Positions 1-43,132 are shown, numbered from the stretch's first letter. The stretch: DNA of 52,975 bases from Escherichia phage phiEcoM-GJ1 (NC_010106.1); one strand, 5' to 3'. The notes: a model not told the origin generated them from the sequence alone. Numbers and translations: made by a program.

Positions 1-156
1 CGATTAAATGGGAGAAGAGATTCGATGCGTTAGCGTCGTTTCTCTTTGAGCTAGAATAAAATAAGTAAGTTTTCAATATTACTTATTCCCAATATTGCTA
101 CAATATTTAAAGTAATATTAGGAATGCGTAAAGTTCAAAACCAAATGGTACATGGT

Positions 157-211
157 CGGTCAACTGTATCTAGACATAGACTCGTTCACAATCGGTCAGC
201 TGTATCTAGCC
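157..211. repeat. two copies of a 19-bp direct repeat CGGTCA(A/G)CTGTATCTAG(A/C)C
   Basis: Copies at 157-175 and 193-211 with 2 mismatches, 36-bp spacing, in the ORF-free left end. Confidence 0.6.
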
Positions 212-287
212 GGAATTTGTTCGAACAGAAGTCCGACTATGTTATAAAAATTTTTTATATAATTTTTTTAATTTAAATATTGTTACG

Positions 288-395
288 GAATTAATGAGAC
301 TCAAATTGTTTCAATTACTCACTTCGTTCGTCCGATATTAATGAGACTAGAATTGTAACGATATTGACGAGACTAGAATTGTGGCGATATTATTT
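288..395 (+). promoter_or_regulatory. three tandem ~26-bp repeats; candidate host-RNAP early promoters or operators upstream of the RNAP gene
   Basis: ATTAATGAGACTCAAATTGT / ATTAATGAGACTAGAATTGT / ATTGACGAGACTAGAATTGT; the third copy gives TTGACG-N18-TATTAT; an AT-rich tract precedes at 236-290. Confidence 0.4.
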
Positions 396-654
396 TTATT
401 TTTGGGCCAGCGGGGAGGGGAAGCCCAACGTCCTATCGGACTTAAAATACGGTCCCTACCCCAACTTTTTCCTACAGCCTATCGGCTTTCAAACAACACC
501 AAGTTAGGTGCTTCGCTTATAGGTCAAGGTCAAAGTCTCCGTGCTGTTGTAACAATGGCACAGGTTTGTGATATTAGTTGGAAGTGAATTGTGTAATGGC
601 TACGCTATTATAATCCGTTTCAGTTAAATCATACACAATCTTGGAGACTTACAA

Positions 655-2601
655 ATGACTACTATCACCACTCAAACTATCAAATCCGTTGTTCCTGCTA
701 TCACTGCTCTGGTATACCGTGCCAAAGAGAAACAGAACTATATGCAGCCTCAGACTTGTGCTATTGCTGCCTTAGCCATCTTCAAGATGATGACCTCTTT
801 CACTCGTGATGATGTTATCCCAGCCATTGCAATGGTTGAACTGGCTTCTGCTTCTATTGCTGATGCCAACCGTTATAACAACGACCTGAAAGCAATGCAC
901 TATGTTGACCCAGCTATCAACCTGATTGGTCTGGCTAAGCACTTTGGCTTCATCACCATGAACGAAGACAAATCGTTCCAGATGACTGATGCATGGATTG
1001 AACTGGTTACAACCAAAGATACCTCAGTTCCATTCACTGAGAAGGTAACAACTGAATCTCGTCGCAAGCCTTTCGTCAAAGGTGGCAAAGTTAAGCCATC
1101 CAAGACTCTGAAAGCTGCAATCGAATTCCTGCAAGATACTGCATATCACGTTGATGCTACAATGGTTAAGGTTATCTCTTCCATGATTGAGCAACGTACT
1201 TATGGTGGCTTGCAGATGCCAGAGGCAATCCAGACTGAACTCCATGTTTGGAACAATGCTGTAGCAATGGTTGGTCAGGACACTCTGTTCTCTGACTACT
1301 TTGCTGATAACCGTGGTCGTCTGTATCATGTTGCTTGTGCTGGTCCTAACCCACAATCATCTGACTTTGCTCGTTGCTTGTATTCCCACAATGTTGAGAA
1401 CACTGTGAGCAAGTTTAATGATGATGGTTCAACAACTCTGGCATACAACATGTTCATGCTTGAGCTGGAAGATATTGCTGGTGGAGACTGGACTTCTGCT
1501 AAACGTTTAACTTATGTTGCACAGAATCCTGTTGGTTCTTTGGCTCGTATGATGAACATGGACAAATCTGAACGTCCTTCTAAGCCATTCACTTATGTTC
1601 GATTAGCTCTGGATTGGTTCAAGTTTGAGACTACTGGTGAGTGCGATTCTCGCGTAGGCTTTGGCTTAGATGCTAAATGTTCTGGTACTCAATATCTGGC
1701 ATTCATTGCTGGTAACATGGAAATGGCTCGTGCAACAGGTCTGGTTGATTCTGAGACTAAGGCATCTGACCCATACCAGTTATCTCTTCGTGAACTGTTA
1801 AAGTTATTAGACCGTTCTTCAATGAAACCATCTCCTGAAATTATGGATGAATTCTTGAATCCGAAAGCTGGTCGTAAGTTTATCAAAACTCCATACATGG
1901 CTATCCAATATGGTGGTGGTAAAGCTGCATTAACTGGTTCTTCTGACTTTATCTCCTACATGACAGAAGCTCTCCAGATTCCTATGGAGAAAGCTGAGGC
2001 ATTTGCTGAACTGTGTGTAGAAGCAATCCATAACGCATTGGGTGAGAAGATTAACATGTTCATCGAGAAAGCTGCTGATGCTGCATACACTCGTTGTGTT
2101 GAACTTGGTAAAGAGTATATCACATATAAGCACACTGATGGCCAAGTTGTAATGAAGCCTTGCTTCCCATCTCGTGACATTTGTGATGCTTTCTCCATTC
2201 GCATTGATTCAGCAACTCGTGTAATCTTTGGCGTAATGTTGGAGGGTGAAGAGAAACCTTGGACCATTCGTGAGTCCAATCCAACTAAAGAAGAATTCAA
2301 ACGTACCTTCGTTGTTAACTACATTCAAGGTATTGATGCATTGGTTGCTCGTACTGTTGCAATCAAAGCTAAAGAAGCTGGTCTTCGTGGCTTTACTTCA
2401 ATTCACGATTGTTTCCGTTGCTGCTTAGCTGATGCTCCTCTCATGATGGAAGTAATTCGTTCTGCTTATATTGAAATCTTTGTTAATAATAATCAGTTTG
2501 AATCTCTGTCTAAGCAACTTGGTGGCATCAACATGTATCACGAGAACATCGTAACAGAAGAGCTTCTGATGAGCGAACACGCTTACTACTTCTGTCAATA
2601 A
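655..2601 (+). CDS. single-subunit T7-like DNA-dependent RNA polymerase, compact form
   Basis: 648-aa ORF with GGAG RBS; palm motifs in T7 RNAP order: GLDAKCSGTQ (motif A-like), KTPYMAIQYGGG (motif B-like), SIHDCFR (motif C-like); about 200 aa shorter at the N-terminus than T7 RNAP. Confidence 0.85.
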   Translation: MTTITTQTIKSVVPAITALVYRAKEKQNYMQPQTCAIAALAIFKMMTSFTRDDVIPAIAMVELASASIADANRYNNDLKAMHYVDPAINLIGLAKHFGFITMNEDKSFQMTDAWIELVTTKDTSVPFTEKVTTESRRKPFVKGGKVKPSKTLKAAIEFLQDTAYHVDATMVKVISSMIEQRTYGGLQMPEAIQTELHVWNNAVAMVGQDTLFSDYFADNRGRLYHVACAGPNPQSSDFARCLYSHNVENTVSKFNDDGSTTLAYNMFMLELEDIAGGDWTSAKRLTYVAQNPVGSLARMMNMDKSERPSKPFTYVRLALDWFKFETTGECDSRVGFGLDAKCSGTQYLAFIAGNMEMARATGLVDSETKASDPYQLSLRELLKLLDRSSMKPSPEIMDEFLNPKAGRKFIKTPYMAIQYGGGKAALTGSSDFISYMTEALQIPMEKAEAFAELCVEAIHNALGEKINMFIEKAADAAYTRCVELGKEYITYKHTDGQVVMKPCFPSRDICDAFSIRIDSATRVIFGVMLEGEEKPWTIRESNPTKEEFKRTFVVNYIQGIDALVARTVAIKAKEAGLRGFTSIHDCFRCCLADAPLMMEVIRSAYIEIFVNNNQFESLSKQLGGINMYHENIVTEELLMSEHAYYFCQ

Positions 2602-2608
2602 TGTAACA

Positions 2609-2638
2609 AGCCCTGTAGAGATACGGGGCTGTTCTTAT
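2609..2638 (+). terminator. candidate intrinsic terminator after RNAP gene
   Basis: 7-bp stem AGCCCTG/CGGGGCT (one G-U) with 8-nt loop, then T-rich GTTCTTATG. Confidence 0.45.
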
Positions 2639-2659
2639 GCATTAGTTGTTAATGAATTA
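2639..2659 (+). promoter_or_regulatory. copy of conserved ~20-bp motif (candidate phage-RNAP promoter), degenerate
   Basis: GCATTAGTTGTTAATGAAT, 40 bp upstream of the 2681 ORF; shares ATTAGTTG core. Confidence 0.35.
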
Positions 2660-2680
2660 AATCAAATTGGAGACTTTATA

Positions 2681-2848
2681 ATGTTCACAGTAACCTTAGT
2701 AACCTATTACGGTAAGCAAGTGTGTAAGAAGTTTGAGACTTTAGCAGAAGCAAGAGCCTTTGCAGCACGTGAAGAGAATATCTATGTAGAGTGTGAAATC
2801 ACAGATGGTGATAAAGTCTACGATGTAGTTAAGCCTGAACTCCACTGA
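2681..2848 (+). CDS. hypothetical small protein (55 aa)
   Basis: ORF MFTVTLVTYYGKQVCKKF... with GGAGACTT RBS identical in form to the RNAP RBS; below the ORF-track size cut-off. Confidence 0.5.
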   Translation: MFTVTLVTYYGKQVCKKFETLAEARAFAAREENIYVECEITDGDKVYDVVKPELH

Positions 2849-2860
2849 TTCCTAATATTC

Positions 2861-2889
2861 GGACAATATTGTTGCATGTAATATTGTCC
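2861..2889. repeat. perfect 10-bp inverted repeat GGACAATATT-N9-AATATTGTCC
   Basis: Arms 2861-2870 and 2880-2889 flank GTTGCATGT; lies just upstream of a motif copy. Confidence 0.6.
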
Positions 2890-3849
2890 CGATATTCGAC
2901 ATTAGTTGGATGTGAAGTAACAGAATACGGAGAAGTATTACTCACGTTGTTCGTGGGTTTCCGCATGTCATGTTGAAATCATTCTAGAAACATTTCAGCA
3001 TGTCAACTAAACACACAGCGTTGTAATGATGTGGCAATCATTGAACTCCCTGTCTTTGGCCGGACAAAGTTCCAGCAACCATGTGTGAAGTAGGATTATC
3101 ATTCGAAACTGTTCTTCCGGTGTTGAACTAACAACAGAACATCGTGTTAGCCATCTTGATTAAGTTACAAGAAAGTCAACAAACCTAAGCATGTTCACTT
3201 GTTTCAATATTGCTCCATCTCCTATTATCAAGGCCCACCCACAAGCCGGGAGATAACTTTGGCAAGACTGGAACTTTTGGACATGCTTCTTTCTTTCAAT
3301 CAGAATTCGAAAGAAGAGAAGAGTCGGAGCAAAGCCGCGAAACTAATCCCGTAGCCCGCCCCGATTTTGAGCAACAAATATTGTGACAATTGCGTCGCAG
3401 TATGGCATGTAAATATTGCTACAAATTGGCATGTTGGAATGTGGCAGAATTGTTAGAGGACTAATCACCTCGAAGATACAATCGTCTACCAATCTGGCAT
3501 GTTAATTTTGTAACAGTATTTGTGCCAATTTCGCATGTAATAAATGTATCAATATTCACCCAATATTCTTGCAACCCGCATGAATACTGGCTTCCAGCCA
3601 AGCGAAGGCTTTATCATCGCATGTAATATTGTGACAATATTGGGATAAAACCCCTTTATTTATTTCTGTAGTTTTGTATTAAATGGACGGTTTTCCGTAC
3701 CTGTTGCGCCACTTCTTGATGTGCCAAATACATTCCAAGATAGGAGCAAACCTGTAATTAATGATGCATGTTTAATTGTGACAAAATTCGTCTATTTGGC
3801 AGATGAGTTAGTTGCAATTAAGCATGTTCATTTATCATTAGTTGCATGT
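2874..3849. repeat. array of about 12 GCATGT-containing degenerate direct repeats in a ~1.1-kb ORF-free region
   Basis: GCATGT at 2874, 2963, 2998, 3189, 3405, 3429, 3497, 3533, 3619, 3766, 3822, 3844, mostly followed by A/T-rich (T)AAT(A/T)TTGT; second palindrome AATATTGTGACAATATT at 3625-3641. Confidence 0.55.
2899..2919 (+). promoter_or_regulatory. conserved motif ACATTAGTTGGATGTGAAG (candidate phage-RNAP promoter)
   Basis: Near-consensus copy; core ATTAGTTGGATGTGA. Confidence 0.45.
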
Positions 3850-9631: not shown

Positions 9632-9651
9632 CTTCATCAATGGAGCATCCG

Positions 9652-10197
9652 ATGGAAAACCAAATTATTCAAGCAGTAACACAGCTTAAGTCCTGGCGTA
9701 GAGATGAAACCTTATTGGTTCGTTTCTACACAGGCGAAAACAATTCTAAATTTGAAGATGTGTGGATTGATGGACTGTCTTGGCGTCTTTATGATTTCGA
9801 CATGTCAGAATATTTGCATGAAGATTATGGCATCGAGTATCCAGAAACAGGTACTTATGACATTCTCGAATCAAGTGAAGCAGATGTTACAGAAGTTTGC
9901 TTTGTTGATGGGTTATTCAGCATTCGCAGATATGACAAATTCAACGAACTGCTTACTGACACTGACTTGGATATAATTCTTGCTGCATTCCGTAGCGATG
10001 AAATTGACATTTTCACTGTTTACGACTTGAACGACATGTTCATCACACGTTGCGACTCAATTGTGGACTACTTCAAGCAAGACGATGGGATAGAAGTTCC
10101 TGAAAACCTGCGTCCGTACATTGATTGGGATGCGATTGCAAGAGATTACGGAAGTGATTACATCTTCTCTGAGGGAGTATTGTTCCGCAATGCGTGA
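9652..10197 (+). CDS. ArdA-like acidic protein, candidate anti-restriction DNA mimic
   Basis: Very acidic ~180-aa protein; C-terminal segment EVPENLRPYIDWDAIARDYGSDYIFSEGVLF resembles the conserved ArdA C-terminal region (recalled from memory); early-region position. Confidence 0.5.
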   Translation: MENQIIQAVTQLKSWRRDETLLVRFYTGENNSKFEDVWIDGLSWRLYDFDMSEYLHEDYGIEYPETGTYDILESSEADVTEVCFVDGLFSIRRYDKFNELLTDTDLDIILAAFRSDEIDIFTVYDLNDMFITRCDSIVDYFKQDDGIEVPENLRPYIDWDAIARDYGSDYIFSEGVLFRNA

Positions 10198-16985: not shown

Positions 16986-17429
16986 ATGAAGCTAGCCAAA
17001 AGCTATATATATAAGGTCGCCAGCACCCGAACACTTACTTGGACCCTCAATGGTAAAGGTTATTTGTCTGCAACCATGCGATATAATAATCACAAATATA
17101 CTATTTATAAACATGTCCTAGTATTCTTTATTCATAATGGGTACGTTCCAGAAGAGGTTGACCACATTGATGGCAACACATTGAATAATGAACCGAGCAA
17201 CCTCAGAGACTCTACTCGCTCGCAAAATTGCAGCAACAGGAAAGTGTTCTCTAATAACGCTCTCGGTGTAAAAGGCGTCCGTAAAGTAGGTAACTCTTAC
17301 CAGGTAAGAGTCTGCCACAACGGTAAGACAACGTATATGAGGGCTTCTTCACTGGAAGAGGCCCAAATTATGTCCAAAAGAATAAGGCAATCTCTGCACA
17401 AGGAGTTCGCCAACGAAGGTAAAATCTAA
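16986..17429 (+). CDS. HNH-AP2 homing endonuclease (copy 1 of 3)
   Basis: HNH core HVLVFFIHNGYVPEEVDHIDGNTLNNEPSNLR followed by an AP2-type DNA-binding segment GVKGVRKVGNSYQVRV...; GGAGG RBS. Confidence 0.8.
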   Translation: MKLAKSYIYKVASTRTLTWTLNGKGYLSATMRYNNHKYTIYKHVLVFFIHNGYVPEEVDHIDGNTLNNEPSNLRDSTRSQNCSNRKVFSNNALGVKGVRKVGNSYQVRVCHNGKTTYMRASSLEEAQIMSKRIRQSLHKEFANEGKI

Positions 17430-19253: not shown

Positions 19254-19739
19254 ATGTCCGATGAACAAAAGATTTCTCTGTGGCGAAGTATGTTTTCCTA
19301 CACAGAGGATGGTAAACTTTACAGGAAGATGGAGTCCGGCAAGTTGAAACTTGTTGGTAGCCCTTGTGGACGAGATAAACTCTATCTTAATGTGCGTGTC
19401 GGGAAGTCATTCGAGTACGTGCACCGGATTATCTTTGGGATGCACTATGGATTCTTGCCAAAGCAAGTTGACCATAAGGTGGGATTTGATAACTCACCAA
19501 GCAATCTTCGTGCGGCAGACAACCAACAGAACAATTGCAACGTTGTCAGAAAACTTGGCGCAGTGCCTTTCAGAGGCGTATCCAGAATGAAGAATGGTAC
19601 GTTTGTAGCCAGGATAAGAAACGGAAATTCGAGGATATACATTGGGACTTTCCCAACTGCCAAACAGGCTGCTTTAGCATACAACGAATTTGCAATAAAA
19701 CTCCACGGAGAGTTTGCGATAATCAATAGGAACATATAA
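19254..19739 (+). CDS. HNH-AP2 homing endonuclease (copy 2 of 3)
   Basis: HRIIFGMHYGFLPKQVDHKVGFDNSPSNLR ... GVSRMKNGTFVARIRNG; inserted between primase-helicase and DNA polymerase. Confidence 0.8.
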   Translation: MSDEQKISLWRSMFSYTEDGKLYRKMESGKLKLVGSPCGRDKLYLNVRVGKSFEYVHRIIFGMHYGFLPKQVDHKVGFDNSPSNLRAADNQQNNCNVVRKLGAVPFRGVSRMKNGTFVARIRNGNSRIYIGTFPTAKQAALAYNEFAIKLHGEFAIINRNI

Positions 19740-26817: not shown

Positions 26818-27003
26818 ATGCGCACAATACAATGTCCTAACTGCCATTATGAAATTGCAGAAGATGATTTCATAACGCAGCAATGTCCTATCTGTGATTC
26901 ATACATGCCACTAAACCGCCTGTATTTAAAGGCCGATTCTGGTTTAGGCAGCATCATTCGCATCAATCCCGTGCAAACTCAGCCATTAGTGGATTGTGAT
27001 TAA
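26818..27003 (+). CDS. zinc-ribbon small protein
   Basis: CPNCHYEI ... CPICDSYM: two CxxC pairs; 61 aa. Confidence 0.5.
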   Translation: MRTIQCPNCHYEIAEDDFITQQCPICDSYMPLNRLYLKADSGLGSIIRINPVQTQPLVDCD

Positions 27004-27514
27004 AAACAAAGAGAACGAATCAATGTCAATACTAAGAGACAGATTGGTTCAATTACTTCACTACGACGAAGCTACTGGCATCTTTACATGGGTGCACGCC
27101 AACAGTAACAGAGTCAAAGTTGGTGATGTTGCAGGCACTATTGGAAGTGCTGGTTACATCTACATTAAGGTTGACGGGGTACGCTATGGCGCACACCAGC
27201 TTGCATTCATCTTTATGGGTGAAGAAGTTCCTGAAGTAATTGACCATGTAGATACCGTACCTTCCAATAATGCTTGGTACAATCTACGTCCTGCCACTTG
27301 CCAGAATAATTCCTATAACATTGGAATAACTTCCAGAAACACCTCTGGGATAAAGGGAGTTGGTTGGGATAAAGAGAGAAAGAAGTGGGTTGCCAAAGTC
27401 TCACTAAATGGGAAGCAACACACTCTTGGAAGATTTACATCTAAACTTGATGCTGAGGCAGCTGCCAAGCTGTTTAGAGAGAAGAACCACAAAGAATTTG
27501 CAAGGAGTCTGTGA
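26996..27514 (+). CDS. HNH-AP2 homing endonuclease (copy 3 of 3)
   Basis: HQLAFIFMGEEVPEVIDHVDTVPSNNAWYNLR ... GIKGVGWDKERKKWVAKV; immediately upstream of the terminase gene; start GTG 26996 or ATG 27023. Confidence 0.8.
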   Translation: MIKNKENESMSILRDRLVQLLHYDEATGIFTWVHANSNRVKVGDVAGTIGSAGYIYIKVDGVRYGAHQLAFIFMGEEVPEVIDHVDTVPSNNAWYNLRPATCQNNSYNIGITSRNTSGIKGVGWDKERKKWVAKVSLNGKQHTLGRFTSKLDAEAAAKLFREKNHKEFARSL

Positions 27515-37603: not shown

Positions 37604-38062
37604 ATGGCTTGTGAATTGCTTCAACGTGAATTCACAAACTCCAAAGGCGAAACAGTGTTAGTCGTTGTTCGACAATTGTCGGCTTCGGCTGCACTGTCTC
37701 TTCACGCGGAGTTGGTAAGCAAGTTAGGCTCACGAGTATTTCCATTCATCGAAGGTAAATATAACTTCGCTGATATTATATACTTGATGCAGCAAGTAGA
37801 GCATACCGTATTCACAGAATTGTTTAAGCGTGTTATCAGCATGCACTCGTCCATAGACGGACAAGAAATCAAACCTGCATTATATGATATGCAGTTCAAT
37901 GGCGAATTGATGTTGTCTTGCCATGTCTTTGCTTTCGTGCTCGAAGCAAACTTCCTTGATTTTTTCAAGCAAGGGCTCGAAATCAACGAACAGAGACGAT
38001 TGGAGGCGGAGGAAGCATCCAAGCTGGCAGAGCAGAAGAATTCGAGTCCGGAGACAGTTTAG
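37604..38062 (+). CDS. tail assembly chaperone (G-like)
   Basis: 152-aa ORF upstream of the tape-measure-position gene; contains slippery heptamer T TTT TTC where the -1 frame opens. Confidence 0.55.
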   Translation: MACELLQREFTNSKGETVLVVVRQLSASAALSLHAELVSKLGSRVFPFIEGKYNFADIIYLMQQVEHTVFTELFKRVISMHSSIDGQEIKPALYDMQFNGELMLSCHVFAFVLEANFLDFFKQGLEINEQRRLEAEEASKLAEQKNSSPETV

Positions 38063-38238
38063 TATCCCTGTTCCCCGACATAAAATATTTTCTGCATCGT
38101 CCTATAATCGAAGACAGTTCTCTCTGCAAGTTACGTGAATTGCAGGATGGAACCTATTCGATTATGGACTTATTGCTATTCCACGACATTCTCGATTTGC
38201 GTAAGAAACTCGAACCAGTAGATGAAGACAATGGCTAA
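37960..38238 (+). other. -1 frame extension of the tail chaperone (GT-like frameshift product)
   Basis: The -1 frame opens at 37960 at the heptamer TTTTTTC (37960-37966) and runs to 38238, overlapping the next gene start by 17 nt. Confidence 0.5.
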
Positions 38239-41200
38239 TCAAAAAGATTTAATGAAGTTGAGCGTTAATGAGTTAATTGCATTAGGCTCTCAAAGCGGTC
38301 TGACTTTCCATGCTGGTATGAAGAAGTCGCACATGGTTCAACAACTTAGTGCGAGCGCTGCTTCGGGATGGCTGGATACAAATGCAGAATTAATGGGTGG
38401 GTCGTTTGAAGATGACAGTTTAATTACTGAATCTCTTGGCGACTCTTCCATGATTTCAGACGCTGCCCACATTGCACAAGTGCTTTCAAGTGCTGGCTAC
38501 ACAGAAGCATTTCATGCAGCAATGAATGGCCCAACACACCATGTAGAAGCTGTTCACGCATACATGGAAAGGCTTGGTGTCAACACAGATGATGTGTGGA
38601 TGCACATGCCAAAGCCAAATCCGAACTTACCGCAAGGTAGCTTCAACATGCTTAATGCGTACATGCGTGATACGCTGGCAGGTCATCAAGATATAATGCC
38701 GGAACTTCCTGGTCATTACACTGGTGACATTATGGGTGAATACTCTACAAACCGTGGAGATATTGCCAAATCTATGGGCTATCTTGCTCATATGTATGTT
38801 GACCGTCAACAATATGACGACCCAGACCGCTATGCACGAGATGTTTATCGTGTAGCCAAACGTTTAGAATCAGAATTGCCGCAAAACTTCCGTGAAGTTG
38901 CTGCTGTATCTGCAATGAATGTAGGTAATAAGTCGGGGCCAAGAGTTTCATACATGGATTCTCTCCCTCAACTTGGTTCCGAATCTATTGTTGGTGATAT
39001 TCAACATCCTCGCCAACCACTTAACGCATCTGGCCTACCTTTAGGCTCTATGGGTTCTGGCATTAAAGCTGAATATTCTTTATCTGCATCATTATCTGGC
39101 TCCCCAGGTTGGTCTGATGCAAGTAAATCTTTATATCAAGATGTATCTGGCGCAGTTAAATCTGCTGCTAAGGTATATGCTGGTGGTTCAGAACGAGGGA
39201 TGAACGCATATCGCACTCAATCTTCTGACCGAGATTTGATTCTTGATTCTGCATCTCGTTATACAGACCTTGCAGATGCTCGTTCTGGTTATGACAACCT
39301 AAAGAAAGATATTGGTGATGACCCTCGTTACTCTGGTGCATCTATTCGTGGCGTACTGGAAAATGCTCACCAATATAATGAAGCTGAAATCAGTAAGACT
39401 TTCGACCCTGCTGAACGTTTAAGAAATACTGGACCTACTGAACTTAGTACATCCAATGAGTTTACGGCAAATCTAAATGAACCGACAAGTTGGAACTCTG
39501 CAAGGGATAGAAGAGAGTCTATTGCTATTGCAAATCTCGATAGTGCTAGCGTTGGACAGCATAGTTCGGTTAAGTACCACGATGCGCTCGAACAAGGTAC
39601 GCAGGAGTGGCTTGATTTTCGTAAGCAGTATGATATTACTGGCTCTACTATTGGTGACTATCTGGGCCACAACCCCGCAACCAATAATAGCCCAATACAT
39701 ACAATGGGCGAAAAGATTGGCCTCACAGTAAGAAAGGATTCCCCACGAGCGCGCGAGAACTTTGAGCGTGGACATAGATTAGAGGCGTGGGCCAGACCCA
39801 GGGTAGGTGAACGATATGGGATTGAAATAACTGAAACTGGTGCAATCACAAACGACGACTATCCTGGCATGATGTACTCGCCTGATGGGCTAATTGGTGA
39901 TGATGCTTTGTGGGAACATAAAGCTCCAAATAACTTTAAAGATTTGGAAACAACTCCAAACTACATGGACCAGATGCAACTTGGTATGCATTTGAGTGGC
40001 CGTAGTCGCACACTGTTTACCCAAACTGTTGGCGAAGAGTCCAGAAGTCAGTGGGTTGAAGCCGACCCAACGTGGTTTGAACGTAACAAGAACAAGATTA
40101 TATCCTCTCAAGCACGCATGAATGCTGGACGCGAGTTTATGGAAAGCTCCGACCTTGAGGGAAAAGACCTTGTTAATGAAACCCGCAAAGTTATGTCTGG
40201 TGATGGAATTTGGGGCTACCAGACTCGTGACCACAGGGAAGGTGAGGGATATACTGCTGGCAAGCGCGGGATGGCTAAATATAGTGCTGCTGCTGGCACT
40301 GCTGCTGACCCGTTTATTGGCTCCCATTCTCCCTACAATCCAGAGGCATCTCGTTCAGGCTACCAACCAAACTTTGTAATGCACGAGCAAAACTTTCCAG
40401 CAACCACAGGAAATGGTGATACTGGAAATGACTCGATGGCATTGTCTGTTAAGAAAGGTATCCTTGCTGCTCAGGAAGAGAATAAGCAAAAGGGTATTGG
40501 TGCAGACGCAGACTTTGATGGCAAAGCTGATTCAATGGGTTGGAATCAGGAACGATTTGATGCTGCCAATGGTGGTGGAAGTGGTGGCGGCGGTGGTCGT
40601 GGCGGCTACTTCACAAGTGGTGGCAACTACTTCGATGACTACGGTCGTATGGGTGGTTCACTTGCTGCTGGCATTGCTGGTGGCAGTATTGGTTCGGCAA
40701 CCAACGGAGTTATGCAAGCATTGATGGCAACTCCTGCCGGACGTATGGCTGCTGTAGGCATTGGTGCTATTCAGATTGGCAATGAAGCTGCTGAATACAT
40801 GAATGACTTTATCGGCAACTCGCTTGATGCTGGTGTTATGAATCCTAATGAATATTCTTCCATGTCGCAAGGCTTGGAGATGTTAGGACTCAACTCACAA
40901 CAAGCGGCACGTATGAATCAAACCACACATAGTGCCTACAACACCATGCTTAACGGCGACCCCAGCGCCGCTGTGAACATCGTTCGCGGCAGTAGGGGAT
41001 TGCTCACCATAGGTGATATTCGCTCGACTGGCGGCGACCCTGTTGCCCTCGCTCGCATTATGCAGGAAAGAGGCAAGGAACGTGGCTGGAGTCAGGCCCG
41101 TATCGCTGGTGCTGCGCAGATGGCTGGGCTGGATGGTATGGCTCGTGCCTTCGACCGCACGGAATACAGCCATGAGCGAGCAGGTTCGGTGGTAGAAAGT

Positions 41201-41950
41201 GGTAGAAACTCTGACTTTGCCGAAGGTATGGCTCAATCAGAAATGTTGCAGGTGGAGCGCGCACAGCTTCTGCCAGGGTATAACGTGCCACAAAGTGTGC
41301 TATCTCATGGTGCTGCACTGTTCGAAGCTGGAAGCACTGCTGCTGGTGCTGCTAACTCTGGATACAGCCAAGCCCGACAAGTTGCTGCAAACGTTTATGA
41401 TTTCATTGCTGGTGAAGAGTCTGGTGGCAAGGAATACAACAAGGATGGTACACGAGTTACAAGCCCGACTGGTGCTCGTGGAATCATGCAGGTTCTTCCT
41501 TCTACTGCTCGTGACCCAGGTTACGGAATCAAACCTTCTGATGGAAGTCCTGAAGATGATGCTCGTGTCGGTCGTGAATACTACGATGCGATGTATAAAC
41601 GATTCGGTGGCGACCATGAGAAAGCAATGGCTGCTTACACGGATGGTGCTGGAACTGTTGACAAGGCTGTCGATAAGTTTGGAATGGATTGGCTCAGTGC
41701 TGTTCCGGCTCAGGCTCAGAAACGTGTTAAAGCATTCCGTGAATGGTCCAAATCTTCTCAATCTTTGGAAGAAGGTGCTACAGGGTTTACTCGCAATGGA
41801 ATGTCCTACGGTCAAACCCAAACTGTTGTCAATGTTAAGATTGATGCTAAGGTCAACAACCAGGTTGCTTCTGCTACAGTTGCAGTTCCTGGTGGCCAGA
41901 CTGTAACTCAACAAATGAACATGAACAACGGTGCACAACAAAGACGTTAA
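38222..41950 (+). CDS. large multidomain virion protein at the tape-measure position: HeH-like N-terminus, lambda-exonuclease/YqaJ-like PD-(D/E)XK nuclease domain, Gly-rich region, lytic transglycosylase (SLT) domain
   Basis: 1242 aa; N-terminal L..L.V.EL..L motif (Rho-N/HeH-like); residues ~440-640 contain QGTQEWLDFR...ITGSTIGDYLG and YSPDGLIGDDALWEHKAP...YMDQMQLGM, matching the lambda exonuclease/YqaJ active-site pattern; GGGSGGGGGRGG tract; C-terminal GEESGG...SPTGARGIMQV...AYTDGAG matches the SLT signature. Confidence 0.7.
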   Translation: MKTMANQKDLMKLSVNELIALGSQSGLTFHAGMKKSHMVQQLSASAASGWLDTNAELMGGSFEDDSLITESLGDSSMISDAAHIAQVLSSAGYTEAFHAAMNGPTHHVEAVHAYMERLGVNTDDVWMHMPKPNPNLPQGSFNMLNAYMRDTLAGHQDIMPELPGHYTGDIMGEYSTNRGDIAKSMGYLAHMYVDRQQYDDPDRYARDVYRVAKRLESELPQNFREVAAVSAMNVGNKSGPRVSYMDSLPQLGSESIVGDIQHPRQPLNASGLPLGSMGSGIKAEYSLSASLSGSPGWSDASKSLYQDVSGAVKSAAKVYAGGSERGMNAYRTQSSDRDLILDSASRYTDLADARSGYDNLKKDIGDDPRYSGASIRGVLENAHQYNEAEISKTFDPAERLRNTGPTELSTSNEFTANLNEPTSWNSARDRRESIAIANLDSASVGQHSSVKYHDALEQGTQEWLDFRKQYDITGSTIGDYLGHNPATNNSPIHTMGEKIGLTVRKDSPRARENFERGHRLEAWARPRVGERYGIEITETGAITNDDYPGMMYSPDGLIGDDALWEHKAPNNFKDLETTPNYMDQMQLGMHLSGRSRTLFTQTVGEESRSQWVEADPTWFERNKNKIISSQARMNAGREFMESSDLEGKDLVNETRKVMSGDGIWGYQTRDHREGEGYTAGKRGMAKYSAAAGTAADPFIGSHSPYNPEASRSGYQPNFVMHEQNFPATTGNGDTGNDSMALSVKKGILAAQEENKQKGIGADADFDGKADSMGWNQERFDAANGGGSGGGGGRGGYFTSGGNYFDDYGRMGGSLAAGIAGGSIGSATNGVMQALMATPAGRMAAVGIGAIQIGNEAAEYMNDFIGNSLDAGVMNPNEYSSMSQGLEMLGLNSQQAARMNQTTHSAYNTMLNGDPSAAVNIVRGSRGLLTIGDIRSTGGDPVALARIMQERGKERGWSQARIAGAAQMAGLDGMARAFDRTEYSHERAGSVVESGRNSDFAEGMAQSEMLQVERAQLLPGYNVPQSVLSHGAALFEAGSTAAGAANSGYSQARQVAANVYDFIAGEESGGKEYNKDGTRVTSPTGARGIMQVLPSTARDPGYGIKPSDGSPEDDARVGREYYDAMYKRFGGDHEKAMAAYTDGAGTVDKAVDKFGMDWLSAVPAQAQKRVKAFREWSKSSQSLEEGATGFTRNGMSYGQTQTVVNVKIDAKVNNQVASATVAVPGGQTVTQQMNMNNGAQQRR

Positions 41951-42022: not shown

Positions 42023-43132
42023 ATGCCGTGGCTACGCAGAGTTGAAGTAATAGTTTCACGTAAAGAAGACCCGAGTATTCGAACAACATTTAAATCACAT
42101 CGTATTGATTTTGAAGTTCGTTCTACTGTTGGGTGGCCCGCCGATACAGCAAACATAACTCTGTTTAACTTGTCATTAGAAGAAGTTAAGTTCCTCCAAG
42201 ACAAGTCCTACGGAGATATGTATATTGAAATTCGTGCAGGGTATGCAGAAGATGAACGTTCCGATTCTAGTGGCGGAACTTCTAGTGGTGGTGTTAAGAA
42301 GTTTGGTCAAAAGGCTGAACAGAGCGACCGCGTAACAGTGTCCACCTCACTGCCAACCATCTTCTCTGGCATTATCACAAACGCAGTTGGCTACAGAAAG
42401 CCTCCTGAACATGTAACACAATTGTTCTGTATTTCCAAGGCATATGGTGCATCAACTGATTTCAAACAGCTGACTGCAATCAAGCCTGGAACCAAGCTAA
42501 TTGATGCAATGCGCTCAATGTGTTCTGACTATGGATTCAATACCATCTCTACATTTGGCGTTGAAGATTCAGTCCTTGAAACAGTAATGCCTCGTGGGCG
42601 TGTGTTTCACGACACATTCTTGAATGAATTTCGTAACATGCTTGGCGAATATAATTTGCTATACACTGTTACAACTGGTGAAGTTCAAATATTCCCAGAC
42701 ACCTTTGGTGATAAAGATGCAGTAAACAGAATGTCCAAAGACAGGGAGCCAGTTAAGCTGGATGCCAACTCAGTCATTGGGAATCCTGTTGCTGGAATCT
42801 GCACCTACACTTTAAACACATTCCTAAACCCATCTTTCCAACCAGGGATGATTCTTGATGTATCTCCTCTGCTTGGAGACGAGCTGCTTGCCAATGGTGT
42901 GACCTCCGTTTCTGGGGAGGGTATTGTTCTTAACACAGACCAGTCCGTATTCCGATGGGCTGTTGAAGACAAATACTTCATCATGGAAGTTGTGCATAAA
43001 GGTTCGACTCACTCAACCATTTATCAAACATCAATCACTGCAATATTGGGTGGCAATACAATGATGGGTGGTAAGGAAGCTGCGTGGCAGGAAATGTATG
43101 CTAACAGTGGAATGGCAATGGAGTCATTTTAA
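42023..43132 (+). CDS. baseplate/tail protein (putative)
   Basis: 369-aa ORF first after the tape-measure-position gene; assigned by position. Confidence 0.5.
   Translation: MPWLRRVEVIVSRKEDPSIRTTFKSHRIDFEVRSTVGWPADTANITLFNLSLEEVKFLQDKSYGDMYIEIRAGYAEDERSDSSGGTSSGGVKKFGQKAEQSDRVTVSTSLPTIFSGIITNAVGYRKPPEHVTQLFCISKAYGASTDFKQLTAIKPGTKLIDAMRSMCSDYGFNTISTFGVEDSVLETVMPRGRVFHDTFLNEFRNMLGEYNLLYTVTTGEVQIFPDTFGDKDAVNRMSKDREPVKLDANSVIGNPVAGICTYTLNTFLNPSFQPGMILDVSPLLGDELLANGVTSVSGEGIVLNTDQSVFRWAVEDKYFIMEVVHKGSTHSTIYQTSITAILGGNTMMGGKEAAWQEMYANSGMAMESF

Follow-up and report, generated by a model that had tools for sequence, protein, structure and literature searches.

A lambda-type exonuclease can act only on a double-stranded end bearing a 5' phosphate, which the host chromosome does not offer, and these enzymes work as toroidal trimers; the lambda exonuclease structure (PDB accession number 1avq) is described as toroidal with three chains. 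Lambda exonuclease and LHK-Exo are free-standing enzymes of approximately 200 to 300 amino acids (aa), usually encoded beside the gene of an annealing protein. A second group of described systems comprises tape measure proteins with an enzymatic domain, such as pb2 of phage T5. To our knowledge, the activities known to be embedded in tape measure proteins are muralytic, and none acts on nucleic acid. The tape measure protein of mycobacteriophage TM4 carries a peptidoglycan-hydrolase motif (cited in PMC11456595). In this study, we analyzed the genome of Escherichia phage phiEcoM-GJ1 (NC_010106.1), the founding member of the family Chaseviridae; the window, i.e., the stretch of DNA to which all positions refer, is the whole genome of 52,975 bp. 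Its protein gp62 stands at the tape measure position of the tail module and carries, in its middle, an apparently intact nuclease domain of the lambda exonuclease type. This phage and its relatives thus probably bring an enzyme for the processing of DNA ends into the cell together with the genome.

The gp62 domain differs from lambda exonuclease and LHK-Exo in that it is embedded at aa 436 to 668 of a 1242-aa tail protein. The neighbors of the gp62 gene are tail genes and do not include an annealing protein gene, and no annealing partner of the RecT, Red-beta, or Erf type was detected among the hypothetical open reading frames (ORFs) tested, which are a subset of the ORFs, or in the annotation of Mangalitsa, an annotated chasevirus relative that also served as the source for the extent of the terminal repeat and for the replication and fiber genes. 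With the enzymatic tape measure proteins, gp62 shares a gene position that corresponds to a protein of the tail lumen and a muralytic entry domain (SLT).

The ORF, which encodes the protein named gp62 in the ST32 paper, is 100% identical to the phiEcoM-GJ1 "putative tail fiber" gp62 and is the only ORF of more than 500 aa in the tail module. Its real start is probably the ATG at 38231, which gives 1239 aa as annotated, and not the ATG at 38222, because the N termini of the homologs begin with MANxK. The gene and the parts of its nuclease domain are as follows.

38222..41950, + strand: gp62, tape-measure-position virion protein (PHROG 19855, "virion structural protein," over the full length)
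39527..40225, + strand: lambda-exonuclease/YqaJ-type PD-(D/E)XK nuclease domain, aa 436-668, predicted from Pfam, PHROG, PDB, AlphaFold, and Foldseek
39620..39622, + strand: codon of R467, in EWLDFR467, aligned to WHKLR of lambda exonuclease (5'-phosphate pocket)
39878..39922, + strand: catalytic block SPD555GLIGDDALWE565HK567, aligned to SPDG...LELK of lambda exonuclease with the domain profile
39962..39979, + strand: YMDQMQ motif, aa 581-586 (Y581, D583, Q584, and Q586 invariant), aligned to YMAQVQ of lambda exonuclease

A Pfam scan of gp62 returned exactly two families, YqaJ and SLT, both well over their curated thresholds. YqaJ (PF09588) covers aa 462 to 594 (E = 3.8e-11, 43.9 bits versus a cutoff of 22), and a partial match to PHROG 434, "RecE-like recombination exonuclease," was also obtained (E = 4e-21). 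Searching the PDB with the single protein found LHK-Exo (3syy, E = 2.8e-9), and searching it with a profile of the domain found both 3syy (E = 2.6e-18) and lambda exonuclease 1avq (E = 2.2e-10). The AlphaFold model of aa 436 to 668, for which 28 diverse homologs were aligned, has a mean predicted local distance difference test score (pLDDT) of 91.2, and Foldseek aligned it with LHK-Exo (E = 6e-11, template modeling [TM] score = 0.78 on the target) and lambda exonuclease (E = 2e-10); the domain is predicted to take the lambda exonuclease fold. Within the catalytic block, SPDGL corresponds to aa 553 to 557 and WEHK to aa 564 to 567. The counterparts in lambda exonuclease are Arg28, which binds the 5' phosphate, the catalytic residues Asp109, Glu129, and Lys131, and the Y/Q motif. 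The 28-sequence domain alignment shows no variation at D555, E565, K567, R467, Y581, Q584, and Q586, these residues are at least 95% conserved in 87 full-length homologs (down to 36% identity), and the 30-residue catalytic window is the most conserved of the entire protein (0.84). Judged from these alignments, the nuclease domain is apparently intact and of the lambda exonuclease type.

The second enzymatic domain lies near the C terminus, and a putative DNA-binding motif lies at the N terminus.

41363..41677, + strand: SLT lytic transglycosylase domain, aa 1048-1152 (Pfam SLT, PF01464)
38249..38359, + strand: Rho-N/SAP-like motif of the helix-extended-helix (HeH) type, aa 10-46

The SLT match (E = 7.7e-13, 48.5 bits versus a cutoff of 21.3) includes the catalytic pair E1066-S1067 (41417-41422) and the motifs GEESGG, GARGIMQV, and AAYTDGAG; partial PHROG matches to endolysin and lytic-tail-fiber families were also found. 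The preliminary description of this gene had read from the DNA a YqaJ/lambda exonuclease domain in the middle of the protein, an SLT domain in its C-terminal part, an HeH/Rho-N-like motif at its N terminus, and a glycine-rich tract. The first two were recovered by profile searches with significant scores, with the quoted motifs present, the active-site residues of the nuclease intact, and a nuclease-like predicted fold; the HeH-like motif is supported at aa 10 to 46, and the tract was found at aa 783 to 795. The same description knew of no report of a nuclease domain in such a virion protein, and the searchable full-text literature agrees: it yielded no paper that pairs YqaJ with chasevirus names or with tape measure, virion, and transglycosylase together, and none that describes tape measure proteins, or the chasevirus homologs of gp62, as having an exonuclease domain. 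Precomputed Pfam annotation already showed the YqaJ domain, and in one GenBank record the gene is called "putative endonuclease."

The position of the gene was described as following the sheath, the tube, and a frameshifted chaperone, and the gene order is as had been stated. Reading downstream, there are the neck terminator (PF23961), the sheath (PF11863), the tube, the Phage_TAC_15 chaperone, gp62, and the hub (PHROG 196), and the hub is followed by a Dit-like protein (PF21821), a plug-like protein, a spike N-terminal domain (PF18352), and a wedge protein (PF11041).

37604..38062, + strand: tail assembly chaperone gp60 (Pfam Phage_TAC_15, E = 2.9e-18; PHROG 11820, "tail assembly chaperone")
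37960..37966, + strand: -1 slippery heptamer T TTT TTC in the chaperone gene, read in the gp60 frame as GAT TTT TTC
37966..38238, + strand: -1 frame extension of the chaperone (annotated gp61 region), approximately 90 open codons, with its end overlapping the gp62 start
42023..43132, + strand: baseplate hub gene, 3' of gp62 (PHROG 196, "baseplate hub," E = 1e-51)

T TTT TTC is the exact point at which the -1 frame becomes open, just after a TGA, and the annotations of ST32 and GJ1 show a small ORF in the gp61 region. Frameshifting of the chaperone is the classical marker of the gene that precedes the tape measure gene. Lying between the frameshifted chaperone and the hub, gp62 is a tape-measure-position protein, and its ruler function is putative. 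A 71-aa ORF at 37923-38138 is in the +1 frame and hence is not the chaperone extension.

The preliminary description had treated the protein as a component of the virion, and this is borne out for a homolog. The gp62 homolog of phage 4HA13 (P0033; 57% identical, with both YqaJ and SLT) was found in CsCl-purified virions with 64 to 67% coverage and ranked second by ion signal in the virion proteome (PMC9699118). Digestion in silico gave coverage ceilings of 41% for the C-terminal part, 45% for the N-terminal part plus the nuclease, and 54 to 68% for all but the nuclease domain. The observed coverage exceeds the ceiling of either half; therefore, both halves are in virions, and the nuclease domain itself is likely to be there as well. 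An artifactual fusion was ruled out, since the architecture is common to 87 full-length homologs from isolates and independent assemblies and a product of 128 kDa was detected by mass spectrometry.

When approximately 50,000 phage genomes were searched by tblastn with the nuclease domain, all chasevirus lineages were found to have it within the gene at the tape measure position (87 records; phages of Escherichia, Yersinia, Erwinia, Pectobacterium, Proteus, and Aeromonas). The other matches were short stand-alone exonucleases, often beside RecT or Erf genes. An exhaustive profile search of 1.8 billion representatives gave 6,873 matches, and the best 150 of these include 22 long proteins (840 to 1534 aa) with an internal nuclease domain. 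Half of them (11 of 22) are only 23 to 40% identical to gp62 over the aligning regions; in five or six of these the alignment extends along most of the protein, in the others it lies mainly at the nuclease domain, and the catalytic motifs are kept in all 11. Some distant long proteins have no detectable SLT, and YqaJ was found in all but one of those scanned. At the two distant loci that were located (L002 and L003), the gene has a Phage_TAC_15 chaperone as its immediate upstream neighbor and is followed by Dit-like, sheath-initiator, and Baseplate_J genes. Because distant homologs keep the motifs and the synteny and some of them lack SLT, the fusion of nuclease and tail protein is, by sequence comparison, old, and the nuclease is its most constant part. 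Among isolated phages carrying the distant variant (P0094 type), none closer than the chaseviruses was found.

Three observations concern these relatives. Six proteins of 518 to 577 aa (P0144, P0150, P0187, P0215, P0219, and P0226) have the same exonuclease domain at the N terminus, followed by approximately 350 aa of no known function. At the distant uncultured locus L002 (11937-15593, 17583-18629), six small ORFs follow the nuclease-bearing gene, and a gene with a RelA_SpoT domain lies inside the baseplate module. The record PP952070.1 (2547-6251), "Staphylococcus phage Pel53" with Staphylococcus hyicus as host, has 86% nucleotide identity across the whole gp62 gene; its host label is doubtful, and the genome resembles that of an enterobacterial chasevirus.

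The central module of gp62 (aa approximately 150 to 700, 38680-40320) is a recombination mosaic. In comparison with ST32-type alleles, this module is 34 to 72% identical and the ends are 86 to 100% identical, and in comparison with MLP1 the pattern is reversed. Between GJ1 and ST32, the flanking proteins gp60, gp63, and gp64 share 99 to 100% identity. According to the SNIPE study, defence systems target tape measure proteins, which diversify regionally (PMC13190303). The mosaic module of gp62 may be where the protein meets host entry factors or defences, although neutral exchange is another candidate cause.

The remainder of gp62 consists of helical blocks, a linker, and a C-terminal tail.

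38402..39526, + strand: N-terminal helical region, aa 61-435, net charge -17
40226..40657, + strand: Gly/Ala-rich linker, aa 669-812, disordered (homolog model with pLDDT below 50; 20% Gly)
40658..40777, + strand: Gly/Ala segments of weak hydrophobicity, aa 813-852 (Kyte-Doolittle peaks of 1.2 and 0.92 over 19 residues, higher than elsewhere in the protein)
40667..41221, + strand: conserved helical core, aa approximately 816-1000 (pLDDT mostly 89-96 in the matching homolog region, aa approximately 810-950)
41732..41947, + strand: C-terminal tail with three beta strands predicted from the secondary structure of the homolog model

The linker is the least conserved part of the family and contains the Gly tract NGGGSGGGGGRGG (aa 783-795, 40568-40606). 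The helical core is the second most conserved block of the family, and no relatives of it outside the family were found by tblastn. No convincing transmembrane helix was found in gp62 (maximum 19-residue hydropathy, 1.2), nor was a peptidase domain, and nothing useful came from Pfam searches at E ≤ 10 with isolated segments (the first 60 aa, aa 71-429, aa 661-1043, and the last 99 aa). The model of homolog P0024 (mean pLDDT 72) shows, in its own numbering, blocks at aa 1-45, 75-375, 412-650 (the nuclease), approximately 810-950, and approximately 1010-1130 (SLT) and three C-terminal strands; approximately 300 residues, the Gly-rich linker included, are disordered. The C-terminal tail of gp62 is presumed to be the hub-binding end, by analogy with the tape measure proteins of Pa193 and T4, which attach to the tail tip or hub by their C termini. 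Outside the family, relatives found by tblastn are limited to the SLT part, and those sharing it include unrelated phages with genomes of approximately 74 to 79 kb. The possibility that the C-terminal half corresponds to a shorter SLT-bearing tail protein of other phages was ruled out by tblastn, in which SLT alone is common; in BFVD, this half gave long but low-TM alignments to proteins of 600 to 750 aa.

Chaseviruses are myoviruses with tails of 110 to 166 nm and linear non-permuted genomes of 52 to 56 kb that carry direct terminal repeats some 2.3 to 3.2 kb long and encode a T7-like RNA polymerase (RNAP). The Mangalitsa record has a predicted direct terminal repeat at 1-3234 with the RNAP gene inside it (211-2325); packaged genomes would thus hold two copies of the RNAP gene, one per end (RNAP is at 655-2601 in the window). 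The replication module includes a T7-gp6-like 5'-3' exonuclease, endonuclease VII, and ligase, and the phage has no stand-alone enzyme of the lambda exonuclease type.

Described tape measure proteins suggest how gp62 may be placed in the tail. The tape measure protein of T4 is bound to the hub by its C terminus; with its N-terminal tip it binds the end of the genome inside the ~40-Å tube and guides the DNA into the cell, and this binding of the tip to the DNA terminus is essential (PMC12929629). In Pa193, the tail proteins of which belong to the same Pfam families as those adjoining the distant homolog, the tail tip is bound by three C termini of the tape measure protein (PMC11456595). During injection by phage lambda, its tape measure protein becomes labeled from a bait in the cytoplasm (PMC13190303). 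With the polarity of T4 and Pa193, gp62 would be anchored by its C terminus at the baseplate hub and exit C terminus first, with SLT cutting the peptidoglycan, and its N-terminal half (HeH-like motif, acidic helical region, and nuclease) would lie at the head-proximal end of the lumen beside the genome terminus. Like T4 gp29, gp62 would thus have DNA-related functions in its N-terminal half, namely, an HeH motif of the DNA-binding type and a DNA-end enzyme; the tip of T4 gp29, however, is a cluster of basic residues with no enzyme, and the orientation and DNA contact of gp62 are inferred, not observed as in T4 (PMC12929629). Three copies of 134.6 kDa occupy approximately 490 nm3, and a lumen of 4 nm by 110 to 130 nm holds approximately 1400 to 1600 nm3. 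The copies would therefore fill about one third of the lumen, and the whole protein can be housed in it.

The active ring could not form in the lumen, since a toroidal trimer would be wider than ~4 nm, and activity would therefore be licensed only after exit and refolding, which the flanking disordered linkers would permit. Probably three copies would accompany the leading end of the DNA to the cytoplasmic side and, once refolded there, bind the sole double-stranded end available. Given the need for such an end and the retained phosphate-pocket arginine, the only substrate at that moment would be the leading end of the phage itself, with its terminal repeat of approximately 3 kb. The domain would hold this end and/or resect its 5' strand, which would make the end a poor substrate for RecBCD before phage genes are expressed, and the exposed 3' tail could pair with the other copy of the repeat in circle or concatemer formation or in recombination-primed replication. 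We tentatively favor this reading, in which the injected nuclease holds and/or resects the terminal-repeat end of its own genome, and give it a chance somewhat short of even. T4 gp2 and Mu N are delivered with the genome and bind its ends, shielding them from RecBCD before phage gene expression. The role proposed for gp62 is theirs, and the likeness is one of role only, since they are separate non-enzymatic proteins. A stronger formulation is doubtful: that chaseviruses and their uncultured relatives inject a tape-measure exonuclease of the recombination type that assembles on the terminal repeat and resects it, as a genome-end-processing step borne by the virion, hiding the end from RecBCD, with the ~3-kb redundancy serving as sacrificial or annealing sequence in the formation of circles or concatemers. 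In the boldest version, a membrane-anchored processive ring might also help to reel in the first kilobases.

Several points weigh against the end-processing reading. Nuclease activity, cytoplasmic delivery, and orientation in the tail are predicted properties. Unlike the enzymatic tape measure proteins, gp62 matched none of the tape-measure families of Pfam and PHROG, and its full-length match was to PHROG 19855; the P0024 model shows many short helices and compact blocks and no long coiled coil, as a monomer prediction that cannot show the state inside the tube. For the virion location of the nuclease domain, the published data give no coverage map, and the single-stranded DNA-binding protein (SSB) was found at 62% coverage in the same CsCl-purified 4HA13 virions (PMC9699118, Table S2), which indicates either some contamination of the sample or packaging of SSB with the nuclease-bearing tape measure protein. 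Because the RNAP gene lies in the repeat, resection would leave its leading copy single-stranded when early expression is needed. The phage already encodes its T7-gp6-like 5'-3' exonuclease, and no annealing partner was found among the ORFs tested or in the Mangalitsa annotation. Finally, mosaicism like that of the central module is met more typically at conflict or entry interfaces than in housekeeping functions.

In another explanation, the injected nuclease is a weapon against other DNA, i.e., a co-infecting or resident linear phage or plasmid, host DNA with ends made by another factor, or the DNA of a defence system, and gp62 is an effector of the "polyvalent protein" type that serves host takeover or counters defence. 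Polyvalent proteins, which are proposed to be codelivered with DNA and combine lysozyme-type with nucleic-acid domains (PMC5512222), and the N4 virion RNA polymerase resemble gp62 as large DNA-codelivered polypeptides with peptidoglycan-cleaving and nucleic-acid domains, and gp62 likewise joins several effector domains in one virion protein (HeH-like, nuclease, and SLT). The strong mosaicism of the nuclease-bearing module between near-identical flanks is expected of a conflict interface, and tape measure proteins are known as regionally diversifying targets of defence (PMC13190303). However, polyvalent proteins and N4 RNAP are packaged in the head or delivered by conjugation, typically with a processing peptidase, whereas the gp62 gene is in the tail module, and neither a processing metallopeptidase nor an association with the head or MuF was found. 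The polyvalent-protein survey of Iyer et al. mentions neither YqaJ nor tape measure, and the only DNases in it are ParB-like (PMC5512222). With a free double-stranded end needed and the 5'-phosphate-pocket arginine kept, an intact circular chromosome or plasmid is no substrate, and few copies at most enter per infection. In Carltongylesvirus infection, the nucleoid was only condensed at 20 to 40 min and the DAPI signal was lost late, with no sign of immediate destruction (PMC13340011); early destruction of host DNA in chasevirus infection was rejected as a candidate on this imaging study, the only one. We consider the weapon unlikely. Of the two functions offered in the preliminary description, genome-end processing fits the enzyme family better than an attack on host DNA, because the family needs a free double-stranded end.

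The domain could also be a non-catalytic clamp, comparable to an end-protection protein, whose sole role is to hold the genome terminus both in the virion and while it is delivered and which digests nothing in vivo. Binding of the DNA terminus by the T4 tape measure N terminus, which is essential, provides a precedent (PMC12929629); selection for metal-dependent end binding would also keep the catalytic residues and the phosphate-pocket arginine, and the RNAP gene in the repeat would be spared damage. A distinctly low probability is nevertheless assigned to it, since D, E, K, and the Y/Q motif, the complete catalytic set, are invariant down to 23% overall identity, which is rare under pure binding, and a folded domain of 233 aa, let alone a trimeric ring, would barely fit a lumen of ~4 nm, so that a grip in the virion is sterically doubtful. 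Action of the late-made protein in the producing cell before tail assembly, as a source of recombination or end-processing activity for replication, concatemer handling, or packaging, with an incidental presence in virions, would fit the need to regenerate long terminal repeats from concatemers in a phage that encodes no stand-alone lambda-exonuclease-type enzyme. It is nonetheless improbable: a T7-gp6-like exonuclease, endonuclease VII, and ligase are already in the replication module, a tape measure protein is made with its chaperone and quickly locked into tails, and stable fusion at one internal position over a deep clade argues that codelivery with the tail matters. The label "tail fiber," under which the nuclease and SLT matches would be irrelevant to injection, stands in many records and in the ST32 and PYps23T papers, and the divergence between related phages is fiber-like. 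We regard it as almost certainly wrong, because the gene, flanked by the frameshifted chaperone and the hub, precedes the entire baseplate, the real fiber genes lie downstream of the baseplate, no fiber-type repeats or receptor-binding domain were found by Pfam, PHROG, or the homolog model, and other annotators label the gene a tape measure protein.

The first seconds of a linear genome in the cell are met by gp2 in T4, by cohesive ends and Gam in lambda, and by slow entry in T7; for most phages, we know of no described means by which the genome ends survive this early stage. Should the stronger formulation of the end-processing reading hold, a tape measure protein would for the first time be seen to include an enzyme acting on nucleic acid, and the exposed leading end of the DNA would be dealt with in a new way; a conserved, apparently active lambda-type exonuclease in a tape measure protein would widen the repertoire of these proteins from wall cutting to DNA processing. 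The system is tractable, since these lytic coliphages can be grown on laboratory E. coli and homology identifies the catalytic residues. The widespread mis-annotation of gp62 as a tail fiber has also entered host-range arguments (ST32 and PYps23T papers).

Elsewhere in the window, three ORFs for HNH homing endonucleases (16986-17429, 19254-19739, and 26996-27514) adjoin the primase/helicase, DNA polymerase, and terminase genes and agree with the three GJ1-specific HNH genes of the ST32 paper. The ORF at 9640-10197 has a weak, sub-threshold match to the antirestriction protein ArdA (E = 8.6e-4, 20.4 bits versus a cutoff of 27), and its counterpart in relatives is annotated as an antirestriction protein.

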